Source: Chloroflexota bacterium
GTDB taxonomy: Bacteria > Chloroflexota > Limnocylindria > QHBO01
Length of the DNA stretch: 64,000 nucleotides
Assembly (NCBI GenBank): GCA_040902225.1
Contig: JBBDXT010000002.1
Span: forward strand, 30,036 to 94,035
Direction: 5' to 3'
Below, piece by piece: positions 909 to 62,671 of the stretch. A program made the position numbers and the translations under genes. Under the pieces are notes generated by a model. It searched no databases. It was not told the DNA's origin and was given only the letters and a program-made list of their open reading frames with translations. The first letter of the stretch is position 1. The number at the start of each line of letters is the position of its first letter.

Positions 909-911
909 CTG

Positions 912-942
912 GGGAGTGTACCGATGCCGCGGCTACACTCCC
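912..942. promoter_or_regulatory. 9-bp perfect inverted repeat in a divergent intergenic region
   Basis: GGGAGTGTA (912-920) and TACACTCCC (934-942) separated by 13 nt, between the DUF1015 start (908) and ATG 1024. Confidence 0.3.
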
Positions 943-1023
943 TGCCAGCCCGCGGCTGAAACTGCCGGGCTCCGCGCTGCGTCTACGGTCCAGACCATTC
1001 AACCGCACCGCTCGCGAGGTCCG

Positions 1024-8399: not shown

Positions 8400-8405
8400 C
8401 CGGGC

Positions 8406-9323: not shown

Positions 9324-9336
9324 CCACAACTTCGCT

Positions 9337-11307
9337 GTGATCGCCCCGCTGGCCCTCATCGGCCTGGTCAGCCTGCCCATCATCGTCGCGTACTACATGC
9401 TGCGGCTGCGACGCCGGGACGTGCCGGTCGGCAGCACCTTTCTGTGGCAGCAGCTGGTGCGCGACGTGGAGGCCAACGCGCCGTGGCAGCGGCTGCGCTT
9501 CAGCTGGCTGCTGATCGTCCAGCTGCTGATCGCGCTGCTGATGGTGATCGCCGCTGCACGTCCGTTCCTTACAGTCAGCTCGGACCTTGCCGCCAACGTG
9601 GTGCTGATCGTGGATACCTCGGCCTCGATGGGCACCGTCGAGGACGGCACCTCGCGCATCGCCGCAGCGCAAGTCGCGGCGCGACGCGTGATCGGGCAGC
9701 TGTCGGAGGGTGGCCACGTGACGGTGGTGACGGCCGATGACTCGGCCCACGTCCTGGTGAGCGACACGGACGACCGAGCCGCGGCGCTCGCGGCCGTCGA
9801 CGGGATCGTCGCCACCCAGGTGCCGGGCGACCTGACCGATGCCTTCGCGCTCGCCTCGGCGCTCGCCGCTCGCGACTCCGACTCCACCGTGGTGGTGGTG
9901 ACCGATGCGAATGCCGACCGCCTTCCGCGCGTCGGGATCGGCGCACCGGTGCAGGTGAAGCGCGTCGGCACGACCGACGGCAACCAGGCCGTGGCGGCCC
10001 TGTCGCTCCTTCGCCGCTCGGGCGGGGCGCAGCTCGACCTGTTCGTGGCGGTCAGCAACCCATCGGCCTCGGACGTGACGCGGCGCCTGGAGATCTACGC
10101 GGACGACGTCCTCGTGGACGCGCGCGACCTCGCCATCCCCGCCGAGCAGCGCTCCGAGGCCCTGATCAGCAGCGTCCCCCAGGGCGCCAGGGTGGTCGAG
10201 GCGCGGCTCGCCGGCGATGACGCGTTGGCGGTCGACGATCGGGCCTTTGCGCTCGTCCCCTCCGCGGCCGCCGTGCGTGCGCTCCTGGTCGGCCCCGGCA
10301 ACACATACCTCGAGAATGCGCTCGCCCTGCTCCCGCGCCTCGAGCTCTATGCCGTCGGCGCCGGCGGCTACGTGGATGCGCTGGACGCCGCCGCCGAGGC
10401 GGGCAAGCCCTATGGCATCGTCATCTTCGACCGCACCGTGCCGGCCCAACCGCCCACCGTCCCGGCGTTGTACGTGGGGCCGGCCGCCGGGAGCGCCTTC
10501 GGCACCGTTGGCCGCGTGCTCGACGGCCCAGCCCTCGACCGCACCGACCCCGCCGATCCCCTGCTGCGATTCGTCGACCTCTCGACGCTGCACATCGGTC
10601 GCGCGCGTGCCGTCACCCTGGCTGACGGGATGCGCCCGGTGGTGGAGAGCGTCCGCGGCGAGCCGCTGGTCGCGATCGGTCGCGTGAACGGACTGGGTGT
10701 CGGGCTTCTGTCATTCGCCCTCGGCGACAGTGACCTGCCGCTCCAGGTCGCGTTCCCGCTCCTCATGAGCAACCTGGTGGACGCGCTGTTGCCGTCGACC
10801 GACGGCATCTTGCCTCCGTCGGTCGAGCTCGGCCAGCCGATCGCCGTCAGCATCGATCCCGCCATCCGGCGGGTTGCCGCCGTGACCGTTGCGAGCGGGG
10901 AACAGCTGGAGCTGGAGGTCGTCGGGGGGCGGGTGACCGTGCCGGGGCCGCGGGTGACCGGCCTGGTCGACCTGCAGGTGGTCGACGACGGAAGCGGCAC
11001 CGGTGGCGTTTCGCTGGGCAGGACGGCCGCGAACCTCTTCAATCCGGGTGAGTCGCGCGTGACCCCCGGTGACCCGGCTCGGATTCGCGATCTCGGCCAG
11101 GTCGGCCCCTCCCCGGGCGACGATGGGCTGACCGCACGATCCGAGTGGTGGTGGCCGCTTGCCCTGGCGGGGCTCGTCCTGCTGCTGGTCGAGTGGCTCC
11201 TCTTCCATCGCCCGACCCGCCGCGCCGTGGCGCGGATCCTGCGCCGCGGTCGGCCGCCGGCCGCGGCACGATCGAGCAGCTCGAGCATGGCAGGCAGCCC
11301 GCGATGA
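9337..11307 (+). CDS. BatA-like N-terminal double-TM plus VWA domain protein
   Basis: N-terminus MIAPLALIGLVSLPIIVAYYMLRLRRRDVPVGSTFLWQQL (BatA-type anchor). VWA MIDAS VVLIVDTSASM. C-terminal TM helix WWWPLALAGLVLLLVEWLLF. Confidence 0.85.
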   Translation: MIAPLALIGLVSLPIIVAYYMLRLRRRDVPVGSTFLWQQLVRDVEANAPWQRLRFSWLLIVQLLIALLMVIAAARPFLTVSSDLAANVVLIVDTSASMGTVEDGTSRIAAAQVAARRVIGQLSEGGHVTVVTADDSAHVLVSDTDDRAAALAAVDGIVATQVPGDLTDAFALASALAARDSDSTVVVVTDANADRLPRVGIGAPVQVKRVGTTDGNQAVAALSLLRRSGGAQLDLFVAVSNPSASDVTRRLEIYADDVLVDARDLAIPAEQRSEALISSVPQGARVVEARLAGDDALAVDDRAFALVPSAAAVRALLVGPGNTYLENALALLPRLELYAVGAGGYVDALDAAAEAGKPYGIVIFDRTVPAQPPTVPALYVGPAAGSAFGTVGRVLDGPALDRTDPADPLLRFVDLSTLHIGRARAVTLADGMRPVVESVRGEPLVAIGRVNGLGVGLLSFALGDSDLPLQVAFPLLMSNLVDALLPSTDGILPPSVELGQPIAVSIDPAIRRVAAVTVASGEQLELEVVGGRVTVPGPRVTGLVDLQVVDDGSGTGGVSLGRTAANLFNPGESRVTPGDPARIRDLGQVGPSPGDDGLTARSEWWWPLALAGLVLLLVEWLLFHRPTRRAVARILRRGRPPAAARSSSSSMAGSPR

Positions 11308-14213
11308 TCCCGGTCGCGTTCACCGACCCAATCTGGCTGTGGCTGCTGCTGCCGGCCGCAGCGCTGGTGATCGGCGGCTGGTGGGCCGCGTCGCGCACGC
11401 TGCCGCGCGCCCGCAGGGTCGCCTCGCTCATCATCCGCCTGACCCTGGTCGGCTGTGTCGTGGCGTCCCTGGCCGGAGCGCGCCTTGCGCTGCCGTCCGA
11501 CCGGCTGTCGGTTGTCTTCCTGGTCGACGCATCGGCCTCGATGCTGGACGCCAGCCGCGAGGAGCTGCTGGCGTTTGCCAAGAAAGGCGTGACCCAGATC
11601 CCCGAGGGCGACACGGCAGGGGTCGTGGTCTTCGGGGCCAACGCCCTTGTTGATCGGCTGCCGTCGAACCTCGACGAGCTGCAAGCGCCGGGGTCGGTGC
11701 CGGTTGTCAGCGCGACCGATATCGCCGCAGCGGTCCGGCTCGGGACCGCCATCTTCCCCGCCGGCACGCAGCAGCGGCTGGTCCTCCTCTCCGATGGAAA
11801 TGACACGAGCGGCCAGGCGGAGGAGGCGATCCTCTCGGCCGCACAGCACGGCGTGCGCCTCGACGTGGTGCTGCCGGGTGGCGAGACGTACCCCGAAGCG
11901 CTGGTGGATGGCGTGGATGCTCCTTCCGGGGCGCGCGTCGGAGAGACCATCGAGTTGAGCGTGCGTGTGCGCTCCACGGTCGCAACTGCCGTGACGCTGC
12001 GCCTGCTCGCCGACGGGGCAACCGTCGCCACTCGCCAGCTCTCACTCAAGCCCGGCACCATCAGCCTCTCGTTCATCGTGAAGGCGGAGGAGCCCGGCTT
12101 CCACGTCTTCCGGGCGGTGATCGAGCCGCGCTCGGACCATTTCACCGAGAACAACGCGGCCGATGCCTACGTGCTGGTCACCGGCGAGCCGCAGGTGCTG
12201 GTCGCCACCGACGACCCGGTTCGCGCCACCGACCTGGTCGACGCCCTGACCACTGCACGCCAGCAGGTGACGGTTGTGCCCGCCGGCGGCGTCCCATCGT
12301 CGATCGCGACACTTGCCGGCTACGACGCGGTCGTGCTCGACAACGTCTCGGCAGCCCAGCTGGGGGCCACCGCCATGGCCAGCCTGCAGGTCTACGTGCG
12401 CGACCTGGGCAAGGGGCTGGTGATGCTCGGCGGCCGGAGCAGCTACGGAGCAGGCGGCTATCTCAACTCCGTCCTCGAGGACGTGCTGCCGGTGTACATG
12501 ACCGTCCGCGATCGGCAGCGTTCACCGGATGTGGCACTGGTGGCGGTGATCGACAAGAGCGGCAGCATGGCCGACTGCCACTGCACCAGCGACAACCGCG
12601 GCACGGCCACCAGCGGGACGCGCGGCTTCGAGAAGGTGGACATCGCCAAAGAGGCGATCCTGCGCGCCGCGGATGCGCTCTCTCCCACCGACCAGCTGGG
12701 GGTGGTGGCCTTTGACGAGGGCGCGCACTGGGCCGTGCGTACCGGCCCGATCGACCACATCGGCCTCCAGAACTCGCTCGGCTTCAAGGCAGACGGGCAG
12801 ACCAACATCTACGCCGGCCTCAAGGCGGCCTACGACGACCTGATCCGGAACCCGGCCAAGCTGCGCCACATCATCCTGATCACCGATGGCTGGAGCCAGT
12901 CCGGCGCCTATGACGCCCTGCTGGCCGACATGAAGAAGGCGGGGATCACCCTCTCCACGATCGGCACCGGCGGCGGCTCGGCGGCCATCCTGCGCCGATT
13001 GGCCGAGCAGTCCGGCGGGCGCTACTACGAGGCCGATGACGCGACCCGCATCCCCGACATCTTCCTGAAGGAGACGATCCGGACCGCCGGAGAGCAGATC
13101 GTCGAGGAGCCGTTCCAGCCGGTCCCCTCCTCGCCGTCCGAGATCCTGCGCGGCCTCGACCCGGGACGTCTCCCGTCGCTCCTCGGCTACAACGCGACCA
13201 CCGCCAAGGGGACCGCCACGGTGGCGTTGCTCACAGGCCGCGACGATCCGCTGCTTGCGCAATGGCAGTACGGCCTGGGGCGCTCGGTGGCATGGACCAG
13301 CGACGTGCGGCAGCAGTGGGCAACGCAGTGGATCGGCACGGAGGCGTTCGGAACGATGACCGCGCAGCTCGTGGCCTGGACCCTTCCCCCGCGGGACGAG
13401 CAGGGGATCGACGTGCAGTTCTCGCCCGGACGCGACGGCGAGCTGAACGTCGAGGTCACCTCCCTCGACGACGATGGGGCTCCGCGCAACTTCTATCGCA
13501 CCGTGCTGCGCATGGTGGCGCCTGACCTGGCACCGCTGCAGAGCACGCTGACCCAGGTTGGCCCCGGCCGCTACGCCGGCACGGTGCGCGCCGATCAGCC
13601 CGGCGCCTACCTCGTGCGGGTGGCCCAGACCCGCGACGGGGCGGACTCGGCCAACCGCACCCTTGGCGTCGTCTCACCCGCGGCGGAGGAGTTCCGGCGC
13701 CTTGGCGTGGACAGCGAGGCATTGGGCCGCTATGCCGGCGCCGGGCAGGGGCGGCAGATCCAGCTCGACCCGTCGGATCCCGAGATCGTCCGGCAGGTCT
13801 GGACACATGACATCGCGGCGGCGGCCTTCCCGACCCCGATCTGGCCGTGGCTCCTGCTGCTGGCCATGATCCTGGTGCCGATCGACGTCGGCGTGCGCCG
13901 GGTCGCCCTGACGCGTGGCGACTTCGTCCGCGCCCGGACCTGGGTCGCTCGCGGCGTGGGCCTGGCCAAGCCGGCGCCGGAGGTGGTGCCGGGGCTGGCC
14001 GAGCTGCGCGCGGCCAGGGGGAGAAGCCAGCGGCGCGCCGACCGATCCGTGCGCCGCAAGGCCGAACCTCCGCCGGCGCAGGCACCCGGCGAGGCTGCAT
14101 CTGCCGCGACGCCGGCCACACCGGCCACGCCAGCGGAGCCGGGCGAGCCGGATGCCGGTCCGGCCGCCGAGACGCTCGCCGAGCGGCTCGCCCGCAGGCG
14201 CCGCGGAGGTTAG
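11304..14213 (+). CDS. double VWA domain membrane protein with GATase1-like segment
   Basis: Start set at ATG 11304 (MIPVAFTDPIWLWLLLPAAALVIGGWW), ATGA overlap with the upstream stop. Two MIDAS motifs (VVFLVDASASM, VAVIDKSGSM). Segment YDAVVLDNVSAAQL...GKGLVMLGG. C-terminal TM plus basic/Pro-rich tail. Confidence 0.85.
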   Translation: MIPVAFTDPIWLWLLLPAAALVIGGWWAASRTLPRARRVASLIIRLTLVGCVVASLAGARLALPSDRLSVVFLVDASASMLDASREELLAFAKKGVTQIPEGDTAGVVVFGANALVDRLPSNLDELQAPGSVPVVSATDIAAAVRLGTAIFPAGTQQRLVLLSDGNDTSGQAEEAILSAAQHGVRLDVVLPGGETYPEALVDGVDAPSGARVGETIELSVRVRSTVATAVTLRLLADGATVATRQLSLKPGTISLSFIVKAEEPGFHVFRAVIEPRSDHFTENNAADAYVLVTGEPQVLVATDDPVRATDLVDALTTARQQVTVVPAGGVPSSIATLAGYDAVVLDNVSAAQLGATAMASLQVYVRDLGKGLVMLGGRSSYGAGGYLNSVLEDVLPVYMTVRDRQRSPDVALVAVIDKSGSMADCHCTSDNRGTATSGTRGFEKVDIAKEAILRAADALSPTDQLGVVAFDEGAHWAVRTGPIDHIGLQNSLGFKADGQTNIYAGLKAAYDDLIRNPAKLRHIILITDGWSQSGAYDALLADMKKAGITLSTIGTGGGSAAILRRLAEQSGGRYYEADDATRIPDIFLKETIRTAGEQIVEEPFQPVPSSPSEILRGLDPGRLPSLLGYNATTAKGTATVALLTGRDDPLLAQWQYGLGRSVAWTSDVRQQWATQWIGTEAFGTMTAQLVAWTLPPRDEQGIDVQFSPGRDGELNVEVTSLDDDGAPRNFYRTVLRMVAPDLAPLQSTLTQVGPGRYAGTVRADQPGAYLVRVAQTRDGADSANRTLGVVSPAAEEFRRLGVDSEALGRYAGAGQGRQIQLDPSDPEIVRQVWTHDIAAAAFPTPIWPWLLLLAMILVPIDVGVRRVALTRGDFVRARTWVARGVGLAKPAPEVVPGLAELRAARGRSQRRADRSVRRKAEPPPAQAPGEAASAATPATPATPAEPGEPDAGPAAETLAERLARRRRGG

Positions 14214-49021: not shown

Positions 49022-50361
49022 CGCAACCGACCGGCGGACGGACCATCGACGAGCGGGTTGACGACAGCGCCGTTTGGCTAGCTCGCCGCGCCGGCGTGCC
49101 GCCGGTCTGGGCCCGTTACACCGACCTGGTGGTCGAGCGCGGCATCGGCTCGTGGATCGAGACGATCGACGGCGAGCGGTACCTCGACTACACCTGCGGG
49201 ATCGGGGTCACCAACACCGGCCACGCGCACCCACGGGTTGCCGCAGCGATCGCCGAGCAGGCCGGCAGGATCATCCACGCCCAGCAGAACATCCTGTATC
49301 ACAAGCCCGGCCTCGAGCTTCATGCGCGCCTGCCGCGCACCTTCCCCGGGCTCCGTGACGGGGAGGAGGCAGGGCTCTTCCTCTCGAACTCGGGGGCCGA
49401 GGCGATAGAGGCGTCCGTCAAGCTGGCCAAGTACTCCACGCGGCGGCCCGCCATCATCGCTTTCCGAGGTGGGTTCCACGGCCGCACCCACGGCGCGATG
49501 GCGCTGACCAGCTCCGGGGTCAAGTACCGCGGCCACTTCGAGCCGCTGCTCGGCGGCGTGCACTTCGCGCCCTACCCGTACGTGCTGCGCAACCCGACCG
49601 GTCGCGACGCCGACGCAGCGGTGGCATTCAGCCTGGCCGGCATCGAGGAGCTCTTCGCGACCGTCGTCTACCCCGATGACGTGGCCGCCTTCCTGGTCGA
49701 GCCGATCCTGGGCGAGGGCGGCTACGTGCTCCCGCCGGATGGCTTCCTGCCCGCGCTGCGTGAGGTCGCCGATCGGCACGGCATCCTGCTGATCGCCGAC
49801 GAGGTGCAGTCCGGCATGGGACGCAGCGGCAGGATGTGGGCGACCGATTGGTACGATGCACGCCCGGATATCGTAGTGATCGCCAAGGGAATCGCCTCGG
49901 GGATGCCGCTCTCCGGCATCATGGCCCGCCGCGAGCTGCTCGACCGGCTGGGGCCCGGCTCCCACGGCGGAACCTACGGCGGCAACGCGGTCGCCTGCGC
50001 CGCGGCCGTGGCCACGCTCGACGTGATCGAGTCGGAGGGGCTGCTCGCCAACGCGGCGCGACAGGGAGAGCGTCTGCTGGCCGGGCTCCGCGAGGTGGCC
50101 GAAGGACACAGCTGCGTCGCCGAGGTGCGAGGGCGAGGGCTGATGATCGGGATCGAGCTTGCGCAGGGCCCGCAGCTGACACCTCGCCCGGACCTGGCCA
50201 AGGGCATCCTGCACGAGGCCTTCGATCGCAAACTGCTCCTGCTCAGCTGCGGCACCCACGGCCAGGTGGTGCGCGTCATCCCGCCGCTGGTCACGACCGA
50301 TGACGAGGTCGAGACCGCGATCGGCGTAATCTCCGAGGCGCTGGCAGCGGTCCGCGCCTAG
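49018..50361 (+). CDS. class III (acetylornithine/GABA/putrescine-type) aminotransferase
   Basis: SNSGAEAIE, LIADEVQSGMGRSGRMW, PLP-Lys context VIAKGIASG, HGGTYGGN. Confidence 0.9.
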   Translation: MTQPTGGRTIDERVDDSAVWLARRAGVPPVWARYTDLVVERGIGSWIETIDGERYLDYTCGIGVTNTGHAHPRVAAAIAEQAGRIIHAQQNILYHKPGLELHARLPRTFPGLRDGEEAGLFLSNSGAEAIEASVKLAKYSTRRPAIIAFRGGFHGRTHGAMALTSSGVKYRGHFEPLLGGVHFAPYPYVLRNPTGRDADAAVAFSLAGIEELFATVVYPDDVAAFLVEPILGEGGYVLPPDGFLPALREVADRHGILLIADEVQSGMGRSGRMWATDWYDARPDIVVIAKGIASGMPLSGIMARRELLDRLGPGSHGGTYGGNAVACAAAVATLDVIESEGLLANAARQGERLLAGLREVAEGHSCVAEVRGRGLMIGIELAQGPQLTPRPDLAKGILHEAFDRKLLLLSCGTHGQVVRVIPPLVTTDDEVETAIGVISEALAAVRA

Positions 50362-50864
50362 CCCTCGACCGGTTCCGGCGCCAATCGGCGGTAGCGCGAG
50401 CCGAACCAGAGAAGCGGCTCGCCGCTCTCCTCGTAGCCGGCGGCCACGATCTCGCCGATGAAGATGGTGTGCGTGCCGGCGGCATGCGATTCGTGCAGCC
50501 GGCAATCGAAGAAGGCGATGGCGCCGTCCAGGATCGGTGAGCCGGTCTCCGCCTCATGCCACGGCGCGTCACAGAAGCGCTGCAGCTTTCCGGCCGTGGT
50601 GGGCAGGGCGAAGCAATCCGCGATCGAGCGCTGATCCTCTCCGAGGACGCTGACCGCGAACGAGTGGCTGCCCACCATGGCGACGTGCGTCTCGCTTCCC
50701 CGGTTGATGCTGACCATCAGCAGCGGCGGGTCGAGGCTGATCGAGGCGATCGCATTCGCCGTCATCCCGGCCAGCAATGGCCCATGCCGCGCGGCGACCA
50801 CCGTCACGCCGGTTGCGAAGCGGCCCATCATCGCCCGCAGCCAGAGGCCGCGATCGTCGTCCAT
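50358..50864 (-). CDS. flavin reductase family protein
   Basis: Start ATG 50864 (MDDDRGLWLRAMMGRFATGVTVVAA). FATGVTVV... and PILDGAIAFFDCRL are typical of HpaC/NADH:flavin reductase domains. Confidence 0.85.
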   Translation of the reverse strand: MDDDRGLWLRAMMGRFATGVTVVAARHGPLLAGMTANAIASISLDPPLLMVSINRGSETHVAMVGSHSFAVSVLGEDQRSIADCFALPTTAGKLQRFCDAPWHEAETGSPILDGAIAFFDCRLHESHAAGTHTIFIGEIVAAGYEESGEPLLWFGSRYRRLAPEPVEG

Positions 50865-50868
50865 CGGC

Positions 50869-51162
50869 TCAGCGGTAGCGCTCCAGCCGCTCGACGATGG
50901 CATTGGCGACCGCCCAGTCCTCCTCGGTCGGCTGCTGGCCACGGTGCAGGTGGACCAGCGGAACCGTGTTCCACGAGGGACCGTCGACCTGCGGGATGTG
51001 GGTCGCCAGGTCGCCTCGATCCAGGACCGCCACGATCGTCGCTCCCCGCTCGCCTCCACGCTCGATGGCCAGCTCGAGCGAACTCGCGAACTCCTCGGGC
51101 GGGCCGAACTCCTGGCCGATGCGCATGGCGATCAGGCCGGAGGTGGGAGGGGTCAGAGCCAT
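50869..51162 (-). CDS. hypothetical protein (97 aa)
   Basis: Start set at MALTPPTSGLIAMRIGQEF within ORF 50869..51261. G/C-ending codons predominate. 10-nt overlap with the upstream gene. No motif recognised. Confidence 0.5.
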   Translation of the reverse strand: MALTPPTSGLIAMRIGQEFGPPEEFASSLELAIERGGERGATIVAVLDRGDLATHIPQVDGPSWNTVPLVHLHRGQQPTEEDWAVANAIVERLERYR

Positions 51163-51558: not shown

Positions 51559-52491
51559 CTAGGCGCGGAGCTCCTTCAGCATCGGTGCGAGCCCGGCGAT
51601 CGTCTCCGCGTTGATGGGGTCGAGAACCAGCTGGACATGCGCAACGCCCTCGGCCTCGAATTCGCGCAGGGTCGCCGCCAGGGTGGCTGGATCGCTCGGG
51701 ATCGGCCTGACATCGGGCTCCTTCAGGTCGCCCAGCGACCTGCCTTTCGCACCCGGGAAGCCCACCAGCAGCGCCAGCGTGCGCTCAACCTCAGCGGGCT
51801 CGCGGCCGGCCGCCCGGCATGCCGCGTCGATCTTCTCGCGCAGCGGCCGGTAGCCCTCCACGCTGTTGCCGAACCAGGTGAACCAGGCGTTCCAGGCCTG
51901 GGCCCAGGGGAGCGTGATGGCCAGCATCCGCTCGCCCATCGAGCCGACCAGGAGCGGCGGCCCCTCACCATGCGCGTGGCGCGGCCCGCGCGGCAGCAGC
52001 TCGCAGTCCTGCAGGTCGTAGTAGGTGCCGTGGAAGTCGCAGCGCCCGTCTACGAGGAGCGTGCGAATGATCGTGAAAGCCTCCTCGAAGCGGCTGACCC
52101 GATGGTCGAACGGGAAGCCATAGGCCAGGTATTCAGTCTCGTTCCAGCCGGCGCCGAGGCCGAGGATCAGCCTTCCGCCGGAGATCTCGTCCACGGTGGC
52201 GGCATGCTTGGCGAGCATGGCAGGGTTATGGAAGCTGGCCGCCGCCACCAACGGCCCGATCTGCACCCGTTCCGTCACCGCGGCGATGCCGGCGAGGGTG
52301 GTCCAGGCCTCCCACGGTCCCCGCGGCGGCAGCCCGTCACCCCGATACAGCAGGTGATCGCCCACCCAGATCGAGTCGAGGCCGATCTCATCGGCCGTGC
52401 GAGCCATCTCGCGCAGATGCGGCCACCGGGCCACCCATTCGACCTCCGGCAGTTGGACTCCCACCTTCATGCGCTCGGTCATGGGGGCCAT
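51559..52491 (-). CDS. LLM class (luciferase-like) flavin/F420-dependent oxidoreductase
   Basis: KVGVQLPEVEW..., IWVGDHLLY, LILGLGAGWNETEY. ~310 aa as for LLM F420-type enzymes. Confidence 0.85.
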   Translation of the reverse strand: MAPMTERMKVGVQLPEVEWVARWPHLREMARTADEIGLDSIWVGDHLLYRGDGLPPRGPWEAWTTLAGIAAVTERVQIGPLVAAASFHNPAMLAKHAATVDEISGGRLILGLGAGWNETEYLAYGFPFDHRVSRFEEAFTIIRTLLVDGRCDFHGTYYDLQDCELLPRGPRHAHGEGPPLLVGSMGERMLAITLPWAQAWNAWFTWFGNSVEGYRPLREKIDAACRAAGREPAEVERTLALLVGFPGAKGRSLGDLKEPDVRPIPSDPATLAATLREFEAEGVAHVQLVLDPINAETIAGLAPMLKELRA

Positions 52492-52707: not shown

Positions 52708-54741
52708 TCAGGCGACGCGCTTGCGCTTCTTGCTGACGTAGTCGACCAGGACGTACTCGCCGAGGTGCTCGGGCTCCACGTAGAAGGCACGACCGCGATT
52801 GATCCGGCTCATCAGGTCGACGAACTCGGAAAGGTACCGCGACCGCTCCAGCATGAAGGTGTTGATCACGATCCCCTCCCGGGTCGCGCGCCCCACCTCC
52901 CGCAGAGTCGACTGCATGGTCCGCATGGTCGGCGGGTAGGCGAACTCGACCTGGCCGTTGGCGATATGCGCGGTCGGCTCGCCATCGGTAATCACCACGA
53001 TCTCCTTGTTGCCGCCGCTGCGACGGCCGAGCAGCTGGCGGGCGATGATCAGCGCGTGCTGGAGGTTGGTCCCGTACTCGAACTCGTACGGTGATAGGGT
53101 GGCGATCGCCTCCGGCTTGATCTGGCGCGCGAAGTACGCGAAGCCGACCACGTACAGCCGGTCGCGCGGGTACTTCGTGTGAATCAGGGTATGGAGCGCC
53201 ATCGCCACCCGTTTGGCGGCGGTTGAGCAGCCTCGAAGCAGCATCGATCGGCTCATATCAAGCAGCAGCACCGTTGAGCTGACCGTGGTCTCCTCGGACC
53301 GATGCACCTCGAAATCGCCCGGCGCGATGCGGACGGGGGTTCCCGGTCCGTTGCGGGCCATCGCATTGAAGAGGGTCCGATTGAGGTCGACAGCGAACGG
53401 GTCCCCATGCTCGAACGGCTTGGTTTCATCCGTCTGCTCGCCGCCACTCCCCGAAGACGGCAGTGCGTGGCCGCCGAGGGACTCACGCCGCAACCGGCTG
53501 AAGATATCCGTCAGCGCGCGCATCCCCAGCTTGCGGGCTGCACGCGGCGTCAGCTCCAGCCGATCGTCCCCGCGCTCCAGGTAGCCCGCCTCCTCCAGCG
53601 CCCGGGTCAGCGCGCGCAGCTGCTCGAGGTCCCCGGTAGCCTCGTCGCCACCGAGTGCCCGGAGTGCCTCGGCATCGATCTGCTCCAGTGAGTCGGGGTC
53701 GCGGGCTGCCAGCAGCTCCTCCTCCATGGCGTCGAAGCGCTGCTGCCGATCGATGGCGTCGAGCGCCTCGGGCAGCCCCAGCGGCTCGTCGCCGCTGAAC
53801 GGATACGGCTCCCCGAAGGGGGTATCGGGGCGGAGGGCCTGGAGGGCGCCGGCCAGGCGCGCCATGTCCCACCGCAGGCGATCGTCGCGCAGCAGCTCGT
53901 CCATCATCTCCTGGAGCTCGGCCCGCATCTCGGGACTCAGTGATGCCATGAGGGATGCCATCTGTGAGGCCTGGCGGTGCAGGTGATCGATCAGCTGGTC
54001 GACCGTCTCGATCCCGGGCGGGAAGTAGTGCCCGTGTCGGACCATGAAGGAGGCGAAGTCGGCGCTCGTGTCGGAGCCCGCCGCATGCTTCTCGAGCAGC
54101 TTGTTGAGGTCGCGGACCATCGCCCGCACGCCGTCGAGATCCTCGGGCGAGATGCCGGCGACCCCCTCCTTCAGCCCATGGAAGTAGGTCTGCAGGAGCT
54201 GCTGGCGAAGCTCGTCGGTGAGGGCGTTGAATGCGTCGCGTGCATCGGCATCCATGAACTCGTAGTCGCGCAGGCTCGTCAGCCGCCCTGCCAGGTCGTC
54301 CGGCAGGGCGTCGAGGCGGTCGCGCCGCTGTTGTGCGGTGCGACTCAGGACCTGCTCCGCCATCCGTGCCTGGTCCTGCGCCGGTCCCGGCGCCGCGTCA
54401 AGGGATCGTTGCTCGGCCTCGTGGACACGCCGCTCTATCCCCGCCCGCTCCTGCTCGACGATCTGCTCCAGCCGTGCCGCGACATCGTCGAGCATGCCGT
54501 CCAGGTTCGCCTTTGACAGCTCCTCCGCGCGACGAGCGCGTAGCTGCTCCACGATCCGCCGCAACCCCGGTACGTCGCCACCGCGCGTGCCGCGCATGCC
54601 CCGCTGCATCAAGCGTTGCAGGGCGCGCCGGATATCGCCCTCGGCAAGGATGTCCTCCGAGAGCGCCTCCAGCACATCGTCGGCGTCAAAGGGAGGCAGG
54701 CTCTGGCTGCCATCCCAGTGCGAGTAGCGGTAGCTGGTCAC
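52708..54741 (-). CDS. VWA domain protein with long helical N-terminal region (partner of the ChlI-like ATPase)
   Basis: 677 aa. C-terminal VWA with MIDAS TVLLLDMSRSM. N-terminal 400 aa charged/helical (MTSYRYSHWDGSQSLPPFDADDVLEAL...). Confidence 0.85.
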   Translation of the reverse strand: MTSYRYSHWDGSQSLPPFDADDVLEALSEDILAEGDIRRALQRLMQRGMRGTRGGDVPGLRRIVEQLRARRAEELSKANLDGMLDDVAARLEQIVEQERAGIERRVHEAEQRSLDAAPGPAQDQARMAEQVLSRTAQQRRDRLDALPDDLAGRLTSLRDYEFMDADARDAFNALTDELRQQLLQTYFHGLKEGVAGISPEDLDGVRAMVRDLNKLLEKHAAGSDTSADFASFMVRHGHYFPPGIETVDQLIDHLHRQASQMASLMASLSPEMRAELQEMMDELLRDDRLRWDMARLAGALQALRPDTPFGEPYPFSGDEPLGLPEALDAIDRQQRFDAMEEELLAARDPDSLEQIDAEALRALGGDEATGDLEQLRALTRALEEAGYLERGDDRLELTPRAARKLGMRALTDIFSRLRRESLGGHALPSSGSGGEQTDETKPFEHGDPFAVDLNRTLFNAMARNGPGTPVRIAPGDFEVHRSEETTVSSTVLLLDMSRSMLLRGCSTAAKRVAMALHTLIHTKYPRDRLYVVGFAYFARQIKPEAIATLSPYEFEYGTNLQHALIIARQLLGRRSGGNKEIVVITDGEPTAHIANGQVEFAYPPTMRTMQSTLREVGRATREGIVINTFMLERSRYLSEFVDLMSRINRGRAFYVEPEHLGEYVLVDYVSKKRKRVA

Positions 54742-54810
54742 GACCGCAGACTGGATGGCGGAGTCGAAGCCGCTCGTAACGCCGCGGCCAAGCCTGCAGC
54801 AGCCACCGCC

Positions 54811-56226
54811 TTACCTCGCGTAGCGCACGCCGCCGCCACGCCGCTCCTTGTTCAGCCGCCGGTTGAGGTGCAGCCCCTCCAGCACGAACTCCACGCCGCT
54901 GGCGACGCCGGCCGGCGATTCGCCAAGGTCGAGCCGCCCCACGGCGCGGCTCAGCTCCGGCAGCTCCGCGACGGTCCGCTGCAGCAGGTCCGAGGCCACC
55001 GCGTCGCCCACCTCGATCTCCGTCCCCGCCTCGAAGCGCTCGACCAGGCCGACCAGCTCGGAGAGCGAGAAGTGCCGATTGAAGACGTTGACCACGGCGC
55101 GCTGCACGAGCTTCTCGATCACCTTGTCCTCGCGCGTCTCGTCGCCGAGCGTCTCGAGCTCGATCTTGCCGGCGGTCGATGCCACGATCGCGCCGAGGTC
55201 GCTGACGCGTGGCGCCCCGATCGGCTCGCCCAGGCGCACGGCCCGCTTCAGGGCGGCGGCCACCAGCGTCTCGTGGTTGGCGATCGTTACGCGAACGCTG
55301 ACCCCGGAGCGCTGGCTCACCTCTGACGACCGTCGCGCCAGCTGCGACAGCTCGGCGACGATCTCCTTCATGAACGAGGGCACCTGCACCGGGACCGATG
55401 CCGCCGTCTCGTCATCGAAGGCCAGCCACTCGGCCTCCATGATGGCGATCTCGGTCTCCGGGTCCTCGGGGTAGTGAGTGCGGATCTGCGCGCCGAATCG
55501 GTCCTTGAGGGGCGTGATGATGCGCCCCCGGCTGGTGTAGTCCTCCGGGTTGGCGGATGCGACCACGAACAGGTCCAGGCTGAGCCGCACCTTGTAGCCC
55601 CGGATCTGGACGTCGCGCTCCTCCATCAAGTTCAGGAGCCCCACCTGGATCCGCTCGGCAAGGTCCGGCAGCTCGTTGAGCGCGAAGATCCCGCGGTTGG
55701 TGCGCGGCAGCAGGCCGTAATGGATCGTCAGCTCGTCGGAGAGGTAGCGGCCCTCGGCAACCTTGACCGGGTCGACCTCCCCCACCAGGTCGGCGATGGT
55801 GATGTCCGGCGTGGCCAGCTTCTCCCCGTAGCGATCCGCGGCCGCCACCCAGGCGATCGGGGTGGCATCCCCTTGTTCCGCCACCAGCGCGCGCGCAAAC
55901 GGGCTGGCCGGCCGCAGCGGGTCGTCGTGCAGCTCCGCGCCGGCCACGACCGGCATCCATTCGTCGAGCAGCCCCACCAGCGAGCGGGCGATCCGGCTCT
56001 TGGCCTGGCCGCGCTCCCCGAGCAGGATGATGTCCTGCCCCGCCAGGATGGCGTTCTCCACCTGTGGCAGCACCGTCTCGTCGTAGCCGATGATCCCCGG
56101 CAGCAGCGACTCCCCGCGCCGCAGACGATCCACCAGGTTGGCGCGCATCTCCTCCTTGACGCTCCGGGACCGGTACCCGCCGGCACGCAGCTCTGCGAGG
56201 GTGCCGATGGTCGGTCGGTCGGTCAT
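54811..56226 (-). CDS. ChlI/BchI-like (Mg-chelatase-type) AAA+ ATPase
   Basis: GYDETVLPQVENAILAGQDIILLGERGQAKS (Walker A variant), RGIFALNELPDLAERIQVGLLNLMEE (Walker B region reads NE), VVASANPEDY, ITPLKDRF. Confidence 0.85.
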   Translation of the reverse strand: MTDRPTIGTLAELRAGGYRSRSVKEEMRANLVDRLRRGESLLPGIIGYDETVLPQVENAILAGQDIILLGERGQAKSRIARSLVGLLDEWMPVVAGAELHDDPLRPASPFARALVAEQGDATPIAWVAAADRYGEKLATPDITIADLVGEVDPVKVAEGRYLSDELTIHYGLLPRTNRGIFALNELPDLAERIQVGLLNLMEERDVQIRGYKVRLSLDLFVVASANPEDYTSRGRIITPLKDRFGAQIRTHYPEDPETEIAIMEAEWLAFDDETAASVPVQVPSFMKEIVAELSQLARRSSEVSQRSGVSVRVTIANHETLVAAALKRAVRLGEPIGAPRVSDLGAIVASTAGKIELETLGDETREDKVIEKLVQRAVVNVFNRHFSLSELVGLVERFEAGTEIEVGDAVASDLLQRTVAELPELSRAVGRLDLGESPAGVASGVEFVLEGLHLNRRLNKERRGGGVRYAR

Positions 56227-57143
56227 GCGGTGGCTCCTTCGGGCAGGGACGGATAATCCAGTAGGGCGGACGCGACCGAGGCCGGATCGCAGACCCCGCG
56301 ATCCGCCAGCGCGGTGAGATATTCGGAACGTTCCGCCAGCTCCGCCTCCAGGTCGTCCGGTGCGAGGCCGAGGCTCGCGGCCAGCACAGCGTACGCCGCA
56401 GGGTCATGCACCAGAAGGCGGCCGGAGCGCCCCCCGTCGCCGGCCAGCCACGGCGGCTCCGGATCACGCTGCGCGCCGGTCAGGCTCGGTGACCGGCCGC
56501 CGTCGAGCGCCGCCAGGCGGAGGGGGGCCAGCGTCCCGCCATCGTCCAGCCGCAGGTGCCAGGCCTCCTCGACCCGACGGTACATGCCGGCCGGTGTGCG
56601 GTAGGCGGAGTACTGGAGGTAGAGCGTCAGGCCGGCAAGGTCGGCATCGGCCGCGCCGAGCTGATCACCTAGGAGGGCGATCGCCTCATCCAGCGAGTCG
56701 GCGTGCATGGTGGCGCCCATGCCGTAGCCGCGCCCCGCCAGCTGCAGTGCTCCGAGAGCGTTGCGGCCCCAGACGTAGACCGGCAGGTGGTCGCTCATCT
56801 CGTTGACCAGCAGGTAGCCGCGCTCGGGACCGATCTCATCGGTCCATTCAAAGTCGCCCCGCCAGCCACGCAGGAAGACCCCCACCGTGCCGGGAGCAAG
56901 GAAGTCGACCAGCGCGGAGAGGGTCGTCGTCTTGCCGGCCATCGGTGCCTCCGAGGCGAGCATCACGCTGCGCCTGCGGCTGGTCACCGCCCAGAGGGTC
57001 GCCATCAGGCGAGCGTCGAGGCTGCCGCTGCCGACGATCTCGACCGCGCTCATCGGCCGCGGCGGGCTCCAGTGATAGCCCCACCAGCCCTCCGGGAAGC
57101 GGCCGTACCACGCTTCCAGGCTGACGTCGGGGGAGGGCTCCAT
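56223..57143 (-). CDS. PilT/VirB11/GspE-like P-loop ATPase domain protein (short, divergent)
   Basis: Start set at ATG 57143 (MEPSPDVSLEAWY) within ORF 56223..57227. Walker A SEAPMAGKTTTLSAL, Walker B-like GYLLVNEMSD (compare LVGEMRD), His-box-like GYGMGATMHADS. ATGA overlap with the downstream AAA+ gene. Confidence 0.65.
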   Translation of the reverse strand: MEPSPDVSLEAWYGRFPEGWWGYHWSPPRPMSAVEIVGSGSLDARLMATLWAVTSRRRSVMLASEAPMAGKTTTLSALVDFLAPGTVGVFLRGWRGDFEWTDEIGPERGYLLVNEMSDHLPVYVWGRNALGALQLAGRGYGMGATMHADSLDEAIALLGDQLGAADADLAGLTLYLQYSAYRTPAGMYRRVEEAWHLRLDDGGTLAPLRLAALDGGRSPSLTGAQRDPEPPWLAGDGGRSGRLLVHDPAAYAVLAASLGLAPDDLEAELAERSEYLTALADRGVCDPASVASALLDYPSLPEGATA

Positions 57144-57365
57144 GGTGGCGGCCACGGTACGCGTGGGGAACCCGGGGCGCAACCGGGCAGTCGGGGGCCG
57201 TCGCGGGCGCGGTCGGGCGCCCTGCACGCCGGTCGCCCGTCTAACTGTCGTACCGCTTCTGTCTGGGCGTGACCGTGGACAGGGCGCACCGCGTGGCGTC
57301 AGCGGTGGCGTGTAGTGCGGTTACTTGTAGTTGCAAAGTCCCCGTCGGTATAGGTCCATGGGTGG

Positions 57366-58049
57366 ATGATCCGATCCAGACCCAACGCGGGTCCCCGCGA
57401 GCACAATGGCGATGCCCTCCGCGCCTTCTCGATTGCCATCGATCAGATGCGGAAGGGTGACGAGGTGGTTGCACTCATCAACCCGGGGGCGCGACGGTCG
57501 GGGGCGGCTTCCAGCGCGTGGCTGAGCGCCCGACTGGCAATCAGCGAGCTGCGGCGCGTGCTCCTGCCCCGCTGCGACGAGCGCTGCCTCACCACGCCGC
57601 ACGACGCTCATGGATTCGTCGTCCTGGCAAACCTGGCGCTCGATCCGGCCGAGCCGCGACAGCCATCCTGGTGGGACGGCTGGAACGACACCCTGCAGCG
57701 GGACCTGCGGACGGGGCGGGTGTGGTACGCGGGCTCCCCGATGCTGCCCGAAACGCCGGAGGGACAGCAGCTGCGAGCGGGCGTGCGACTGGCGCGGGTC
57801 ACGTCGACCGATCCATATTGGATTCACTACGACGCCATGGACCAGGAGGTCCTGTACCGCATCGAATCCGGCCCGTTCGAGGGCGACGCGCTGATCGCTG
57901 CCTCGTTTGGCCTGTCCCCGCTGCTCCCCGGTCTTGCCGGCGCCCTGATCGCGCCGGACCATCCGCCGGCGCGTGACCCCGACGTGGCCAGGCGATTGCT
58001 GATCGCGGGCTGGTCGACGGTCGAGCGAGGTCTTCCCTTCGAGGCATAG
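57366..58049 (+). CDS. hypothetical protein
   Basis: ORF 57366..58049. Strong G/C bias at third codon positions and ordinary residue composition. The opposite-strand ORF 57321..58178 looks like a shadow. Start uncertain (ATG 57447 possible). Confidence 0.5.
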   Translation: MIRSRPNAGPREHNGDALRAFSIAIDQMRKGDEVVALINPGARRSGAASSAWLSARLAISELRRVLLPRCDERCLTTPHDAHGFVVLANLALDPAEPRQPSWWDGWNDTLQRDLRTGRVWYAGSPMLPETPEGQQLRAGVRLARVTSTDPYWIHYDAMDQEVLYRIESGPFEGDALIAASFGLSPLLPGLAGALIAPDHPPARDPDVARRLLIAGWSTVERGLPFEA

Positions 58050-58071
58050 CCCGTGCAAGGGGGCCGGTATC

Positions 58072-58686
58072 ATGCGGGCAATGACCGATGCCGAGGCACC
58101 CGCGCCGCGTCCCATGATCCGCGGCGAGCGGGTCTGGCTGCGCCCCAGCGAACCATCCGACGTCATCCACGACTCCACCTACGCCGGCGATGCCGAGGTC
58201 GGCCACTTCCTGGGGGCGAAGACGCCGATGTCGAAGGCCGCTGCCGAGCGCTTCAGCACCGAGATCTTCTCGCAGAACCCGATGAATCCGACCGCCTATG
58301 GCTTTGCCATCTGCCTGCTGGGGACCGAGGAGAGCATCGGTACTGTCCTCCTGCGCGACGTCGACAAGGTCAACGGCAGCGGCATCGTCGGAATCTTCAT
58401 CGGGGACCGGCGCTACCTCGGCCAGGGATACGGAACCGATGCGCTCAATGCTCTGGTTGATCTCGGCTTCGGGGAGCTGCGCCTGGAGCGGATCGAGCTC
58501 GAGGTTTTCGACTTCAACGAGCGCGCCGTCCGCTCGTACCAGAAGGCCGGCTTCCAGACCGATGCCATCCAGCGACGTGCACGCTTCCATCGCGGCGCGC
58601 ACCACGACGTGCACATCATGTCCATCCTCCGCGACGACTGGCTGGCGATCCCCCGCAAGCGCAGCTGGGAGCTGGCCGGCCCCTAG
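58072..58686 (+). CDS. GNAT family N-acetyltransferase (RimJ/RimL-like)
   Basis: IFIGDRRYLGQGYGTDALNALVDLGFGELRLERIELEVFDFNERAVRSYQKAGF is a typical GNAT acetyl-CoA-binding core. Confidence 0.8.
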   Translation: MRAMTDAEAPAPRPMIRGERVWLRPSEPSDVIHDSTYAGDAEVGHFLGAKTPMSKAAAERFSTEIFSQNPMNPTAYGFAICLLGTEESIGTVLLRDVDKVNGSGIVGIFIGDRRYLGQGYGTDALNALVDLGFGELRLERIELEVFDFNERAVRSYQKAGFQTDAIQRRARFHRGAHHDVHIMSILRDDWLAIPRKRSWELAGP

Positions 58687-61675: not shown

Positions 61676-62671
61676 GTGACGGTGACGAAGATCGGCTACG
61701 CGGCCATGCTCGAGCAGTTCCATCCGACCGACCTGCTCGAATGGTGCCCACAGGCTGAGGCCGCCGGATTCTCCGCGGGATTCATGGTCAGCGAGCACTT
61801 CCACCCCTGGACGCCGCAACAGGGAAACGCTGCGTTCGCCTGGACTTTCTTGGGCGCCTTGGGGCAGCGCACGACCTTGCCGATCGGCCTCGCCGTCACA
61901 GCCCCGGGGTTCCGCTACCACCCCGCGGTCATCGCGCATGCCGCCGCCACGATGGGCGCGATGTATCCGGGCCGCTTCTGGCTCGGACTGGGTGCAGGTG
62001 AGGCGCTCAATGAGCACGTCATCGGCGGCAAGTGGCCAGAGATCGGCATTCGCAGCGCGATGCTGTTCGAGGCGATCGAAATCATCAACAAGCTCTTCAC
62101 GGGCGACGTGGTGCGGCACACCGGCACCTATTTCACCCTGGAGTCGGCCAAGCTCTACACCCGCCCGGAACAGGCGGTCCCGATCTACGTCGCCACCGCC
62201 GGACCGATGAACGCCAAGCGCACCGGTCGCCACGCCGACGGGATGATCACGGTCGGAGCGGCAGATGTGAAGATCCAGATGTTGTGGGCCAAGTTCGGAG
62301 AGGGGGCGCTCCAGGCGGGCCGGGATCCGCACTCAATGCCGAAGTTGCTGCAGATCCACGTCTCGTGGGCGAAGACCCACGCTGTGGCTGAGGCGAACGC
62401 AATGCGCGAGTGGCCCAACGGCGGCATGCCCTTTCCGAAGCAGGACATCCGCCACCCGGAGGACTTCGCCAACCTCGCCAAGCTGATCCGCCCCGAGCAC
62501 TTCACGAATCGGGTCCTGATCTCGGCCGACCTCGACGAGCACGCGGCGCACATCCAGAAGTTCGTGGACATGGGCTTCGACGAGATCCACCTTCACAACG
62601 TCGGGCGCAACCAGGCCGAATTCATTGCCGCGTTCGGGGAGGAGGTCCTGCCGCACCTCCGCCTCGGCTGA
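61676..62671 (+). CDS. F420-dependent oxidoreductase, glucose-6-phosphate dehydrogenase (FGD) family
   Basis: KIGYAAMLEQFHPTDLLEW, VSEHFHPW, WLGLGAGEALNEHV, ~331 aa. The substrate cannot be asserted. Confidence 0.8.
   Translation: MTVTKIGYAAMLEQFHPTDLLEWCPQAEAAGFSAGFMVSEHFHPWTPQQGNAAFAWTFLGALGQRTTLPIGLAVTAPGFRYHPAVIAHAAATMGAMYPGRFWLGLGAGEALNEHVIGGKWPEIGIRSAMLFEAIEIINKLFTGDVVRHTGTYFTLESAKLYTRPEQAVPIYVATAGPMNAKRTGRHADGMITVGAADVKIQMLWAKFGEGALQAGRDPHSMPKLLQIHVSWAKTHAVAEANAMREWPNGGMPFPKQDIRHPEDFANLAKLIRPEHFTNRVLISADLDEHAAHIQKFVDMGFDEIHLHNVGRNQAEFIAAFGEEVLPHLRLG

Follow-up and report, generated by a model that had tools for sequence, protein, structure and literature searches.

Three co-oriented genes and their products

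The stretch of DNA analysed here, a window of 64,000 nucleotides (64 kb) from a Chloroflexota genome with a G+C content of about 70%, carries three co-oriented genes on its minus strand according to its list of open reading frames (ORFs). A sequence-only reading of the window had described them as a triad of a PilT/VirB11-like ATPase (p1), a ChlI/BchI-like AAA+ ATPase with altered Walker motifs (p2) and a von Willebrand factor type A (VWA) protein (p3). We find that the link of p1 to the AAA+/VWA pair is real and apparently undescribed, and that the locus probably constitutes a three-component, co-translated module. For each of the three proteins, close relatives are labelled, for example, Candidatus Limnocylindria or Chloroflexota, and the sequencing runs that match the window hold sediment and soil metagenome DNA only. 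The genes and their principal motifs, including the metal-ion-dependent adhesion site (MIDAS) of the VWA protein, are as follows.

56223-57143, minus strand: gene 1 (p1), 306 amino acids (aa), a stand-alone FlaI/archaeal-GspE-type ATPase C-terminal domain without the N-terminal domain
56922-56948, minus strand: Walker A of p1, APMAGKTTT (G70, K71); AGKTT in 42 of 61 locus copies
56790-56813, minus strand: Walker B of p1, LLVNEMSD (N114, E115, S117); NE[MIL]S in 43 of 61 locus copies
56694-56717, minus strand: His box of p1, GATMHADS (H147, A148); aligns to 'sTlHA' of GspE/FlaI
56223-56240, minus strand: p1/p2 junction, a GAAGGAG Shine-Dalgarno-like site at 56240-56234 inside the end of p1 plus the ATGA overlap
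54811-56226, minus strand: gene 2 (p2), 471 aa, a chelatase-like (ChlI/BchI-related) AAA+ ATPase of the purNH-linked actinobacterial (Rv0958/MSMEG_5512-type) family
55996-56019, minus strand: Walker A of p2, GERGQAKS (Ala75 for the usual Gly); aligns to GDRGTGKS of ChlI
55672-55686, minus strand: Walker B of p2, FALNE (Asn184-Glu185); aligns to yvDEv of ChlI
52708-54741, minus strand: gene 3 (p3), 677 aa, GTG start, a VWA protein of the Rv0959/MSMEG_5511-type family
53245-53259, minus strand: MIDAS DxSxS of p3 (D495, S497, S499); invariant in 17 relatives, as are T558 and D586

The longest ORF for p1 runs from a GTG start (56223-57227, 334 aa); the ATG at 57143 is favoured because it yields a protein of 306 aa and most of the 120 closest relatives are 302-310 aa long. 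The stop codon of p1 and the start codon of p2 share the bases ATGA (56226-56223), and 69 nt (54742-54810) separate p2 from p3, so that the spacing given in the sequence-only reading is confirmed, as is the presence of all five motif strings it had quoted (the Walker and His-box strings above). The GAAGGAG site lies eight bases upstream of the p2 start, and together with the overlap this suggests translational coupling of p1 and p2. Scans of the locus and its vicinity for Rfam elements, tRNAs, promoters and terminators gave nothing, and neither a sigma-70-like promoter nor a terminator was seen between 52300 and 58200.

The first protein opens with a conserved WWG motif (W20, W21, G22, W25), followed by a RecA-like core and a C-terminal helical bundle. 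Its AlphaFold2 model is confident (pLDDT, the predicted local distance difference test, 87; predicted TM-score 0.88), and Foldseek places it with FlaI (4ihq, 4ii7) and the GspE of Archaeoglobus (2oap) at E~1e-14 and a query TM-score of 0.67 over about 305 columns; CpaF/TadA come next, and PilB, PilT, PilU, VirB11 and DotB match much more weakly. When the family profile is compared with the PDB, 2oap scores 1.6e-35, FlaI 2e-23, CpaF 1e-4, and PilT and VirB11 above 0.004. The earlier assignment of p1 to the PilT/VirB11-like secretion ATPases is thus right as to the general class, but its nearest relatives are FlaI and archaeal GspE. NCBIfam returns a local FlaI match and nothing else, and Pfam, T2SSE included, has no match to p1 of the window; T2SSE is found weakly in 16 of 40 relatives.

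This similarity is confined to residues ~227-500 of the 511-513-residue archaeal GspE and FlaI, which comprise the C-terminal ATPase domain and the helical bundle, residue ~30 of p1 aligning to residue ~230 of both chains. The preceding N-terminal domain of about 225 residues (N1/N2, PAS-like) is absent and replaced by some 30 residues with the WWG motif, which bears out the earlier suspicion that p1 is short and lacks an N-terminal region. As a secretion ATPase, p1 therefore possesses the RecA-like C-terminal domain with Walker A, Walker B Glu and His box, and is devoid of the N-terminal domain that should stand before it; homology and domain loss are both direct observations. The residues of Walker A, Walker B and His box are under purifying selection, and in an alignment of 40 members the invariant or near-invariant positions are W20, W21, G70, K71, N114, E115, S117, Y123, W125, G126, H147 and A148. 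The WWG segment, conserved and exposed, is a candidate docking element.

Among 1.84 billion representative proteins, 522 clusters of the p1 family at 50% identity were found, 295 of them at E<=1e-10, and almost all members are ~260-310 aa long. Such short length across 522 clusters indicates that p1 belongs to a real family of stand-alone proteins, for which the models searched include no dedicated Pfam or NCBIfam entry. In this family the ATPase domain of type IV filament motors persists on its own, away from filament genes, which bears both on the evolution of these motors and on annotation, since 'type II secretion system protein E', the current label, misleads.

Several peculiarities of p1 and its relatives may be recorded here. 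The copy in the window contains an insertion of about 30 residues modelled at low confidence (DGGRSPSLTGAQRDPEPPWLAGDGGRSGRLL; positions 57043-57051, in the region of residues 31-33, and residues 214-243), which is missing from most family members outside the Limnocylindria, and, in its Asp-box region, an RGD tripeptide (residues 94-96) that the family does not conserve. On the complete 2.07-Mb Chloroflexota chromosome OY969711.1 (locus L027, 6915-9254), a p1-like frame continues, uninterrupted by any stop codon, into an F420H2-dependent quinone reductase domain (Pfam 2.1e-38; residues 650-773 when the frame is taken from stop to stop), either as a fusion or as an in-frame neighbour. Walker B reads Asn-Glu in the two ATPases of the locus alike, NE in p1 against GE in FlaI-type proteins and NE in p2 against DE in AAA+ proteins, each conserved within its family; we treat this resemblance as coincidence.

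Judged by its sequence, p2 is ChlI-like and retains all elements of a ring ATPase except the canonical Walker B Asp. Its closest matches among solved structures are ChlI (8osf, 1.9e-8, residues 43-272, with the single sequence) and BchI (1g8p, 2.6e-10, with a profile), in agreement with the earlier ChlI/BchI-like assignment. In the alignment with ChlI, sensor 1 reads ASANPED against GSGNPEE and the arginine element LKDRFG against LLDRFG; sensor-1 N226 and R243 are invariant in the p2 family, and E185 corresponds to the Walker B Glu of ChlI. The altered Walker motifs were correctly noted by the sequence-only reading, but they are hallmarks of a very large family, which includes the actinobacterial purNH-linked proteins, and not a local oddity: [ILVM]NELPD occurs in all 107 p2 relatives from the fetched loci, those of Actinomycetota included, and Walker A is GERGQAK[ST] in 99 of these and GERGQGK[ST] in five. 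Across the same 107 relatives, the Ala or Gly variant of Walker A bears no relation to the presence of p1.

The canonical motifs of BchI/ChlI (Walker A GxxGxGK[ST], Walker B hhhhDE) are accordingly not found in p2, and it remains below the curated cut-offs of TIGR02030 (35.8 vs 466.95 bits) and TIGR02442 (39.1 vs 779.45) as well as those of AAA_3 (21.2 vs 27), Mg_chelatase (17.2 vs 20.3) and bpMoxR (17.6 vs 27). Pfam yields AAA_5, Sigma54_activat and Mg_chelatase, all weak, and the annotation 'sigma-54-interacting transcriptional regulator / magnesium chelatase' is unsupported. At the level of identity, p2 shares 65% with TRD_RS11480 of Thermomicrobium roseum, 63-68% with proteins that, among named sequences, are closest to Methylomirabilota or Eisenbacteria, and 50-51% with genes of Tsukamurella, Nonomuraea and Nocardia; long stretches are invariant from Chloroflexota to Actinomycetota. 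This extreme conservation fits a constrained core function and not a conflict system. The AlphaFold2 model of p2 is poor (pLDDT 68, below 50 in the invariant core 134-251), probably owing to the near-absence of variation in the core of the alignment, and Foldseek gave only weak matches to ChlI/BchI and MCM.

The third protein bears a conserved RYSRWDG motif in its N-terminal part; a long helical region, a winged-helix segment resembling HemN_C (~353-401) and the C-terminal VWA domain follow, together with a basic KRKRV tail. Its identification as a VWA protein holds, with a VWA_2 domain at residues 490-588 and an intact MIDAS; VWA_2 was found in 17 of 17 relatives and HemN_C in eight of the 17. 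No AAA family was detected in residues 1-480 of p3.

Linkage and phyletic distribution

The association of p1 with the pair was examined from both sides. A forward scan with an alignment of 10 p1 sequences, covering one genome per species and using patterns drawn from Chloroflexota sequences, gave 39 loci; the reverse test relied on 80 metagenome loci holding the AAA+ gene, with counts made by hand. Chloroflexota-lineage labels are carried by 36 of the 39 p1 loci and span Limnocylindria, Chloroflexia, Thermomicrobiales, Sphaerobacter, Dehalococcoidia, SAR202 and 'Bacterium HR24'; the other three are one 'uncultured bacterium', one probably mis-binned sequence and one weak non-member. The restriction of p1 to Chloroflexota is provisional, as the patterns of the scan are derived from that phylum and the 522 clusters carry no taxonomy.

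An AAA+ gene follows p1 on the same strand, within a flank of about 8 kb, in 24 of the 39 loci, and about four of the remainder are too short downstream. From the metagenome side, p1 lies upstream of the AAA+ gene in ~21 of the 80 loci, most of which have the VWA gene downstream where sequence suffices. Wherever the two genes occur together (45 loci), p1 stands upstream of the AAA+ gene and on the same strand, the projected gap being at most 30 nt in 18 loci, 31-150 nt in nine, 151-1000 nt in nine and above 1 kb in nine; the two genes overlap or abut in the closest loci. Constant order, constant strand and close spacing (150 nt or less in 27 of the 45) argue that the arrangement is not due to chance. 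The cultured Thermomicrobium roseum DSM 5159 carries the whole triad as TRD_RS11475, TRD_RS11480 and TRD_RS11485, annotated as 'type II secretion system protein E', 'sigma 54-interacting transcriptional regulator' and 'VWA domain-containing protein', respectively.

Co-conservation of p1 with the pair, on which the sequence-only reading had made its proposal depend, is borne out by linkage of p1 and AAA+ genes across several deep clades. When p1 is placed in a neighbour-joining tree, the unlinked copies group in a single Dehalococcoidia-type clade with a SAR202 locus at its base, and the other deep clades are all linked to the AAA+ gene. The linkage persists among p1 proteins that are 33-40% identical, in classes from Limnocylindria to Thermomicrobia. 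Every pairing of the three genes is found, namely p1-AAA+ without an adjacent VWA gene, VWA-p1 without the AAA+ gene and AAA+-VWA without p1. Linkage that is kept through rearrangement at such low identity is a classical signature of functional association; gene linkage and phyletic pattern are, like the homologies, directly observed. No other neighbour recurs around p1, upstream of the AAA+ gene or downstream of the VWA gene in the 39 genome loci and the related AAA+ loci; neither a different upstream partner in the loci without p1 nor a fourth gene after the VWA gene came to light.

Some of these rearranged loci deserve description. In a SAR202 metagenome-assembled genome (L032, 5919-8789), the VWA gene is directly upstream of p1 and there is no AAA+ gene within 8 kb. 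A subclade of Limnocylindria has p1 and AAA+ genes without a VWA gene in the 6-8 kb fetched; loci of this two-gene kind are L004, L005, L006, L008, L009, L011, L012 and L013 among the genomes and L044 and L046 among the metagenomes. In several of them, as read by eye, the AAA+ gene is followed by a small DUF1232-like protein and a protein of ~890 aa. The latter was considered as a replacement VWA protein in Limnocylindria and rejected, as it looks, again by eye, like a membrane signalling protein of PAS/GGDEF/EAL type.

Outside the triad, the pair reaches into Actinomycetota. A tblastn search of annotated replicons found it in Thermomicrobium roseum, Tsukamurella, Nocardia and Nonomuraea, and in Tsukamurella the AAA+ gene EL451_RS20575 (51% identity to p2 over the full length) and VWA gene EL451_RS20570 (33% identity to p3, end to end) lie downstream of purN-purH. 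From the gene order in Mycobacterium tuberculosis, with purN as Rv0956 and purH as Rv0957, we take the Tsukamurella pair to be Rv0958/Rv0959. More generally, the actinobacterial purNH-linked pair is taken here as Rv0958/Rv0959 of M. tuberculosis and MSMEG_5512/MSMEG_5511 of M. smegmatis, an equation made by synteny and published annotation, not by direct alignment. With adjacent genes and an intact MIDAS, p2 and p3 have the make-up of AAA+/VWA pairs in general and, by the full-length similarity of both proteins to the purNH-linked pair, that of the Rv0958/Rv0959 type in particular.

The resemblance covers both proteins. The actinobacterial AAA+ proteins are 50-51% identical to p2 over their full length and share the NELPD Walker B, sensor 1, the arginine and a C-terminal LEGLxL; the VWA proteins have the same N-terminal motif, MIDAS and basic tail as p3, and the two genes are likewise adjacent and co-oriented. 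In contrast to the window locus, the actinobacterial loci have no FlaI-like gene, and their Walker A keeps the canonical Gly (GERGQGKT). Published tables list Rv0958/mmar_4541 as a 1,392-bp 'magnesium chelatase', MSMEG_5512 as an Rv0958 orthologue with a sigma-54-interaction domain and MSMEG_5511 as a von Willebrand factor type A protein. The mycobacterial pair proteins also appear in lists from RNA-polymerase affinity purification-mass spectrometry without DNA association, from the ClpC1 interactome and from the PafBC proteome, and none of those papers assigns a function to the Rv0958/Rv0959-type proteins.

In Tsukamurella, a 286-aa protein is encoded directly upstream of the AAA+ gene (L041, 6011-6871), on the same strand and with a gap of 76 nt. 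It was examined as a cryptic p1 and rejected, for it is a member of the HTH_67 family (6.5e-80) that may act as a local regulator.

The role of p1 and rival explanations

The AAA+/VWA pair is a strongly conserved core of housekeeping type, and p1 is an accessory, lineage-specific partner of it, not an obligatory third subunit. Pairs of a AAA+ ring and a VWA adaptor with MIDAS that remodel or mature a specific client are a known kind, as exemplified by the MoxR-class pairs RavA/ViaA, CbbQ/CbbO, NorQ/NorD and CoxD/CoxE (summarised in PMC7159879), whose logic the pair shares; unlike these, p2 misses the AAA_3 cut-off, and no client gene is linked to the pair except possibly p1. By analogy with BchI/BchD, CbbQ/CbbO, NorQ/NorD and RavA/ViaA, ATP binding or hydrolysis by the AAA+ ring would exert a conformational pull on a client or reshape it, and the VWA protein would hold this client at its MIDAS and transmit the pull. 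In many Chloroflexota, a p1 gene would then have been recruited directly upstream of the pair, adding either a nucleotide-sensing regulator or adaptor, or the client itself.

On balance, we lean towards p1 being a functional partner of this housekeeping remodelling machine. In that role it would be a nucleotide-binding accessory subunit, such as a regulator or adaptor, or a dedicated client, and not a secretion or pilus motor. In secretion ATPases, the N-terminal domain normally assembles the hexamer, supplies part of the active site and links the motor with its membrane platform. Since precisely this domain has been lost, p1 is unlikely to be an autonomous motor.

A number of points weigh against this reading. 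Despite at least 1 kb of upstream sequence, ~41 of ~62 informative metagenome AAA+ loci have no p1, so that the pair evidently works without it. The earlier notion of the triad as a unit stands for the many Chloroflexota in which the genes are linked, but it does not extend to about two thirds of the sampled AAA+/VWA loci, which lack p1, or to the one p1 clade that occurs alone. In this solitary, Dehalococcoidia-type clade, p1 may work without the pair, or its partners may be encoded elsewhere. Lacking the N-terminal elements of the active site, p1 may only bind nucleotide, and p2, whose Walker B Asp is replaced by Asn and whose P-loop carries an Ala, could likewise hydrolyse ATP poorly. The structural assignment of p2 draws on sequence comparison, its model being poor, and the interaction, expression and activity of the triad are putative. 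Physical contact among the three proteins, ATPase activity of those with variant Walker motifs and the nature of the client are accordingly proposed by analogy with the systems named above.

With less confidence, we put forward that the triad could be a previously unrecognised two-motor machine, in which a domain-reduced FlaI/GspE-type ATPase would dock on the chelatase-like AAA+/VWA chaperone, or be loaded or remodelled by it. The reduced ATPase would perhaps derive from archaeal-type filament ATPases acquired by Chloroflexota. Archaellum clusters with ArlI (FlaI) are widespread in this phylum through horizontal transfer (PMC12488501) and are a plausible source of the p1 domain. The same clusters, together with the clear homology of p1 to FlaI/GspE/CpaF and the NCBI name of the T. 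roseum protein, 'type II secretion system protein E', could also be read as signs that a Tad pilus, type IV pilus or archaellum encoded in another part of the genome has p1 as its motor or as a degenerate paralogue of that motor. We consider this very improbable. While p1 shares the C-terminal ATPase fold, the motifs and the helical bundle with FlaI/ArlI and archaeal GspE (4ii7, 4ihq, 2oap), and more distantly with TadA/CpaF, it differs from FlaI/GspE in a shorter segment between Walker A and His box and in having NE for GE, and the N-terminal domain is missing throughout the family, whose ~260-310 aa match the C-terminal half only. The AAA+ and VWA genes alone recur beside p1 in the 39 genome loci, where linkage to PilC/TadBC/ArlJ platform and pilin genes was not found, and no platform protein, pilin or prepilin peptidase occurs among the p1 neighbour clusters inspected by eye.

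That p1 is a mere neighbour of the AAA+/VWA operon without shared function, for example an orphan nucleotide-binding regulator, would account for the many AAA+/VWA loci without p1, for the more than 1 kb that separates the genes in nine of the 45 loci and for the solitary clade, in which p1 sits beside a HAD hydrolase, a Zn-dehydrogenase, an M28-like peptidase and a Lon-N-like protein. It is nevertheless unlikely in view of a linkage that spans several deep p1 clades from Limnocylindria to Thermomicrobia at 33-40% identity, with invariable strand and order and often with overlapping stop and start codons, that outlasts rearrangement (VWA-p1 in L032, p1-AAA+ without VWA) and that makes the AAA+ and VWA genes the only recurrent neighbours of p1. 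A little less probable again is a true metal chelatase motor that inserts Mg, Co or Ni into a tetrapyrrole or metalloenzyme, with its H/N subunit or target encoded elsewhere and p1 replacing or assisting a partner. BchI/ChlI with BchD/ChlD and the ChlID-type TIGR02442 do comprise the closest characterised AAA+ proteins by sequence and a partner that likewise ends in a VWA domain with MIDAS; the best structure and NCBIfam similarities of p2 and of the p3 VWA domain are to ChlI/BchI, BchD and the putative cobaltochelatase TIGR02442, and sources label the p2 family 'magnesium chelatase'. In addition, a transposon insertion 49 bp upstream of the listed Rv0958 orthologue of M. marinum came out of a B12-resistance screen (PMC11237697).

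Against a chelatase, the scores of 24-39 bits lie far under cut-offs of 467-779; p2 has ~200 extra C-terminal residues, Walker B NE instead of DE and an Ala in the P-loop; and the N-terminal region of p3 is helical, with no AAA family detected, where BchD has an AAA-like domain. The longest ORF of the window measures 1022 aa, none is of CobN/ChlH size and none of those scanned belongs to that family, so that a chelatase system with a large H/N subunit beside the AAA+ and VWA subunits is not found within the window; in the related loci, no H/N-type, tetrapyrrole or metalloenzyme gene recurs beside the pair. The pair, at 36-39 bits against 467-779, does not map to a characterised magnesium or cobalt chelatase clade; such a mapping was the outcome that the sequence-only reading had set against its own proposal. 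The classical form of chelatase was rejected because family scores and motifs do not fit, a D-type AAA domain is missing and no H/N gene lies nearby.

The sequence-only reading had also raised a nucleoside triphosphate-dependent conflict system, and a defence role of the MoxR-VWA ternary kind with p1 as third component has a superficial appeal, since the layout of AAA+, VWA and extra NTPase recalls the ternary systems of Kaur et al. 2020 (PMC7159879) and p2 gives a weak bpMoxR match of 17.6 bits. This match is under the cut-off of 27, however, and PADLOC has no match for p1 or p3 and only a trivial RtcR-AAA similarity for p2. The locus has no effector, VMAP or beta-propeller component, and models, components and context all fail to place it among the ternary conflict systems. 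Unlike fast-evolving defence genes, p2 is 63-68% identical between phyla with an invariant core; the pair keeps a stable purN-purH context in Mycobacteriales, and the neighbours at the window locus are metabolic. The idea did not survive these comparisons: a defence system was rejected on the PADLOC result and the housekeeping neighbours, and we regard it as highly improbable.

If p1 is a client or adaptor, it would be the first tangible clue to what the very widespread Rv0958/Rv0959-type pair, found in M. tuberculosis as well, does in the cell. Among the uncharacterised protein pairs of monoderm-type phyla, this is one of the more conserved, with ~65% identity between Chloroflexota and Methylomirabilota-labelled relatives. 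A lineage-specific and tightly linked third gene constitutes a comparative-genomic clue of a kind that can make the function of the pair testable, the more so as the cultured T. roseum carries the whole triad. The genes of the triad are already present in public genomes under misleading annotations, and the literature searched yielded no account of the stand-alone FlaI-domain family, nor any of how it is linked to the Rv0958/Rv0959-type pair.

Surroundings of the locus

The ~930 nt 5' of p1 (57144-58071) contain two overlapping antisense ORFs, neither with a Pfam match. Further away, the neighbours include a GNAT acetyltransferase, a histidine kinase with a response regulator, a class-III aminotransferase, oxidoreductases, a flavin reductase and, as judged from sequence, what resembles a polyamine-type ABC transporter.

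57366-58049, plus strand: ORF upstream of p1, 227 aa, no Pfam match; status as a gene doubtful
57321-58178, minus strand: ORF upstream of p1, 285 aa, no Pfam match; status as a gene doubtful
51559-52491, minus strand: luciferase-like oxidoreductase (probably F420- or flavin-dependent), flanking the locus
61676-62671, plus strand: luciferase-like oxidoreductase (probably F420- or flavin-dependent), flanking the locus
50358-51059, minus strand: flavin reductase, flanking the locus

In a few close relatives (L003, L010, L043), and not more widely, a luciferase-like gene of the 51559-52491 type also stands 3' of the VWA gene.

The window further contains a second, unrelated AAA+/VWA system on the plus strand (7374-14213), which is a classic operon of Bat/MoxR type.

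901-3456: DUF4350/DUF7408 protein, preceding the operon
3279-5569: ABC transporter, preceding the operon
7374-8399, plus strand: MoxR (AAA_3, 212 bits)
8406-9323, plus strand: DUF58 protein
9337-11307, plus strand: BatA-N/VWA protein
11145-14213, plus strand: VWA and GATase1-like protein, 1022 aa

The presence of this separate, canonical MoxR-DUF58-BatA/VWA operon in the same window marks the triad locus as a distinct system.

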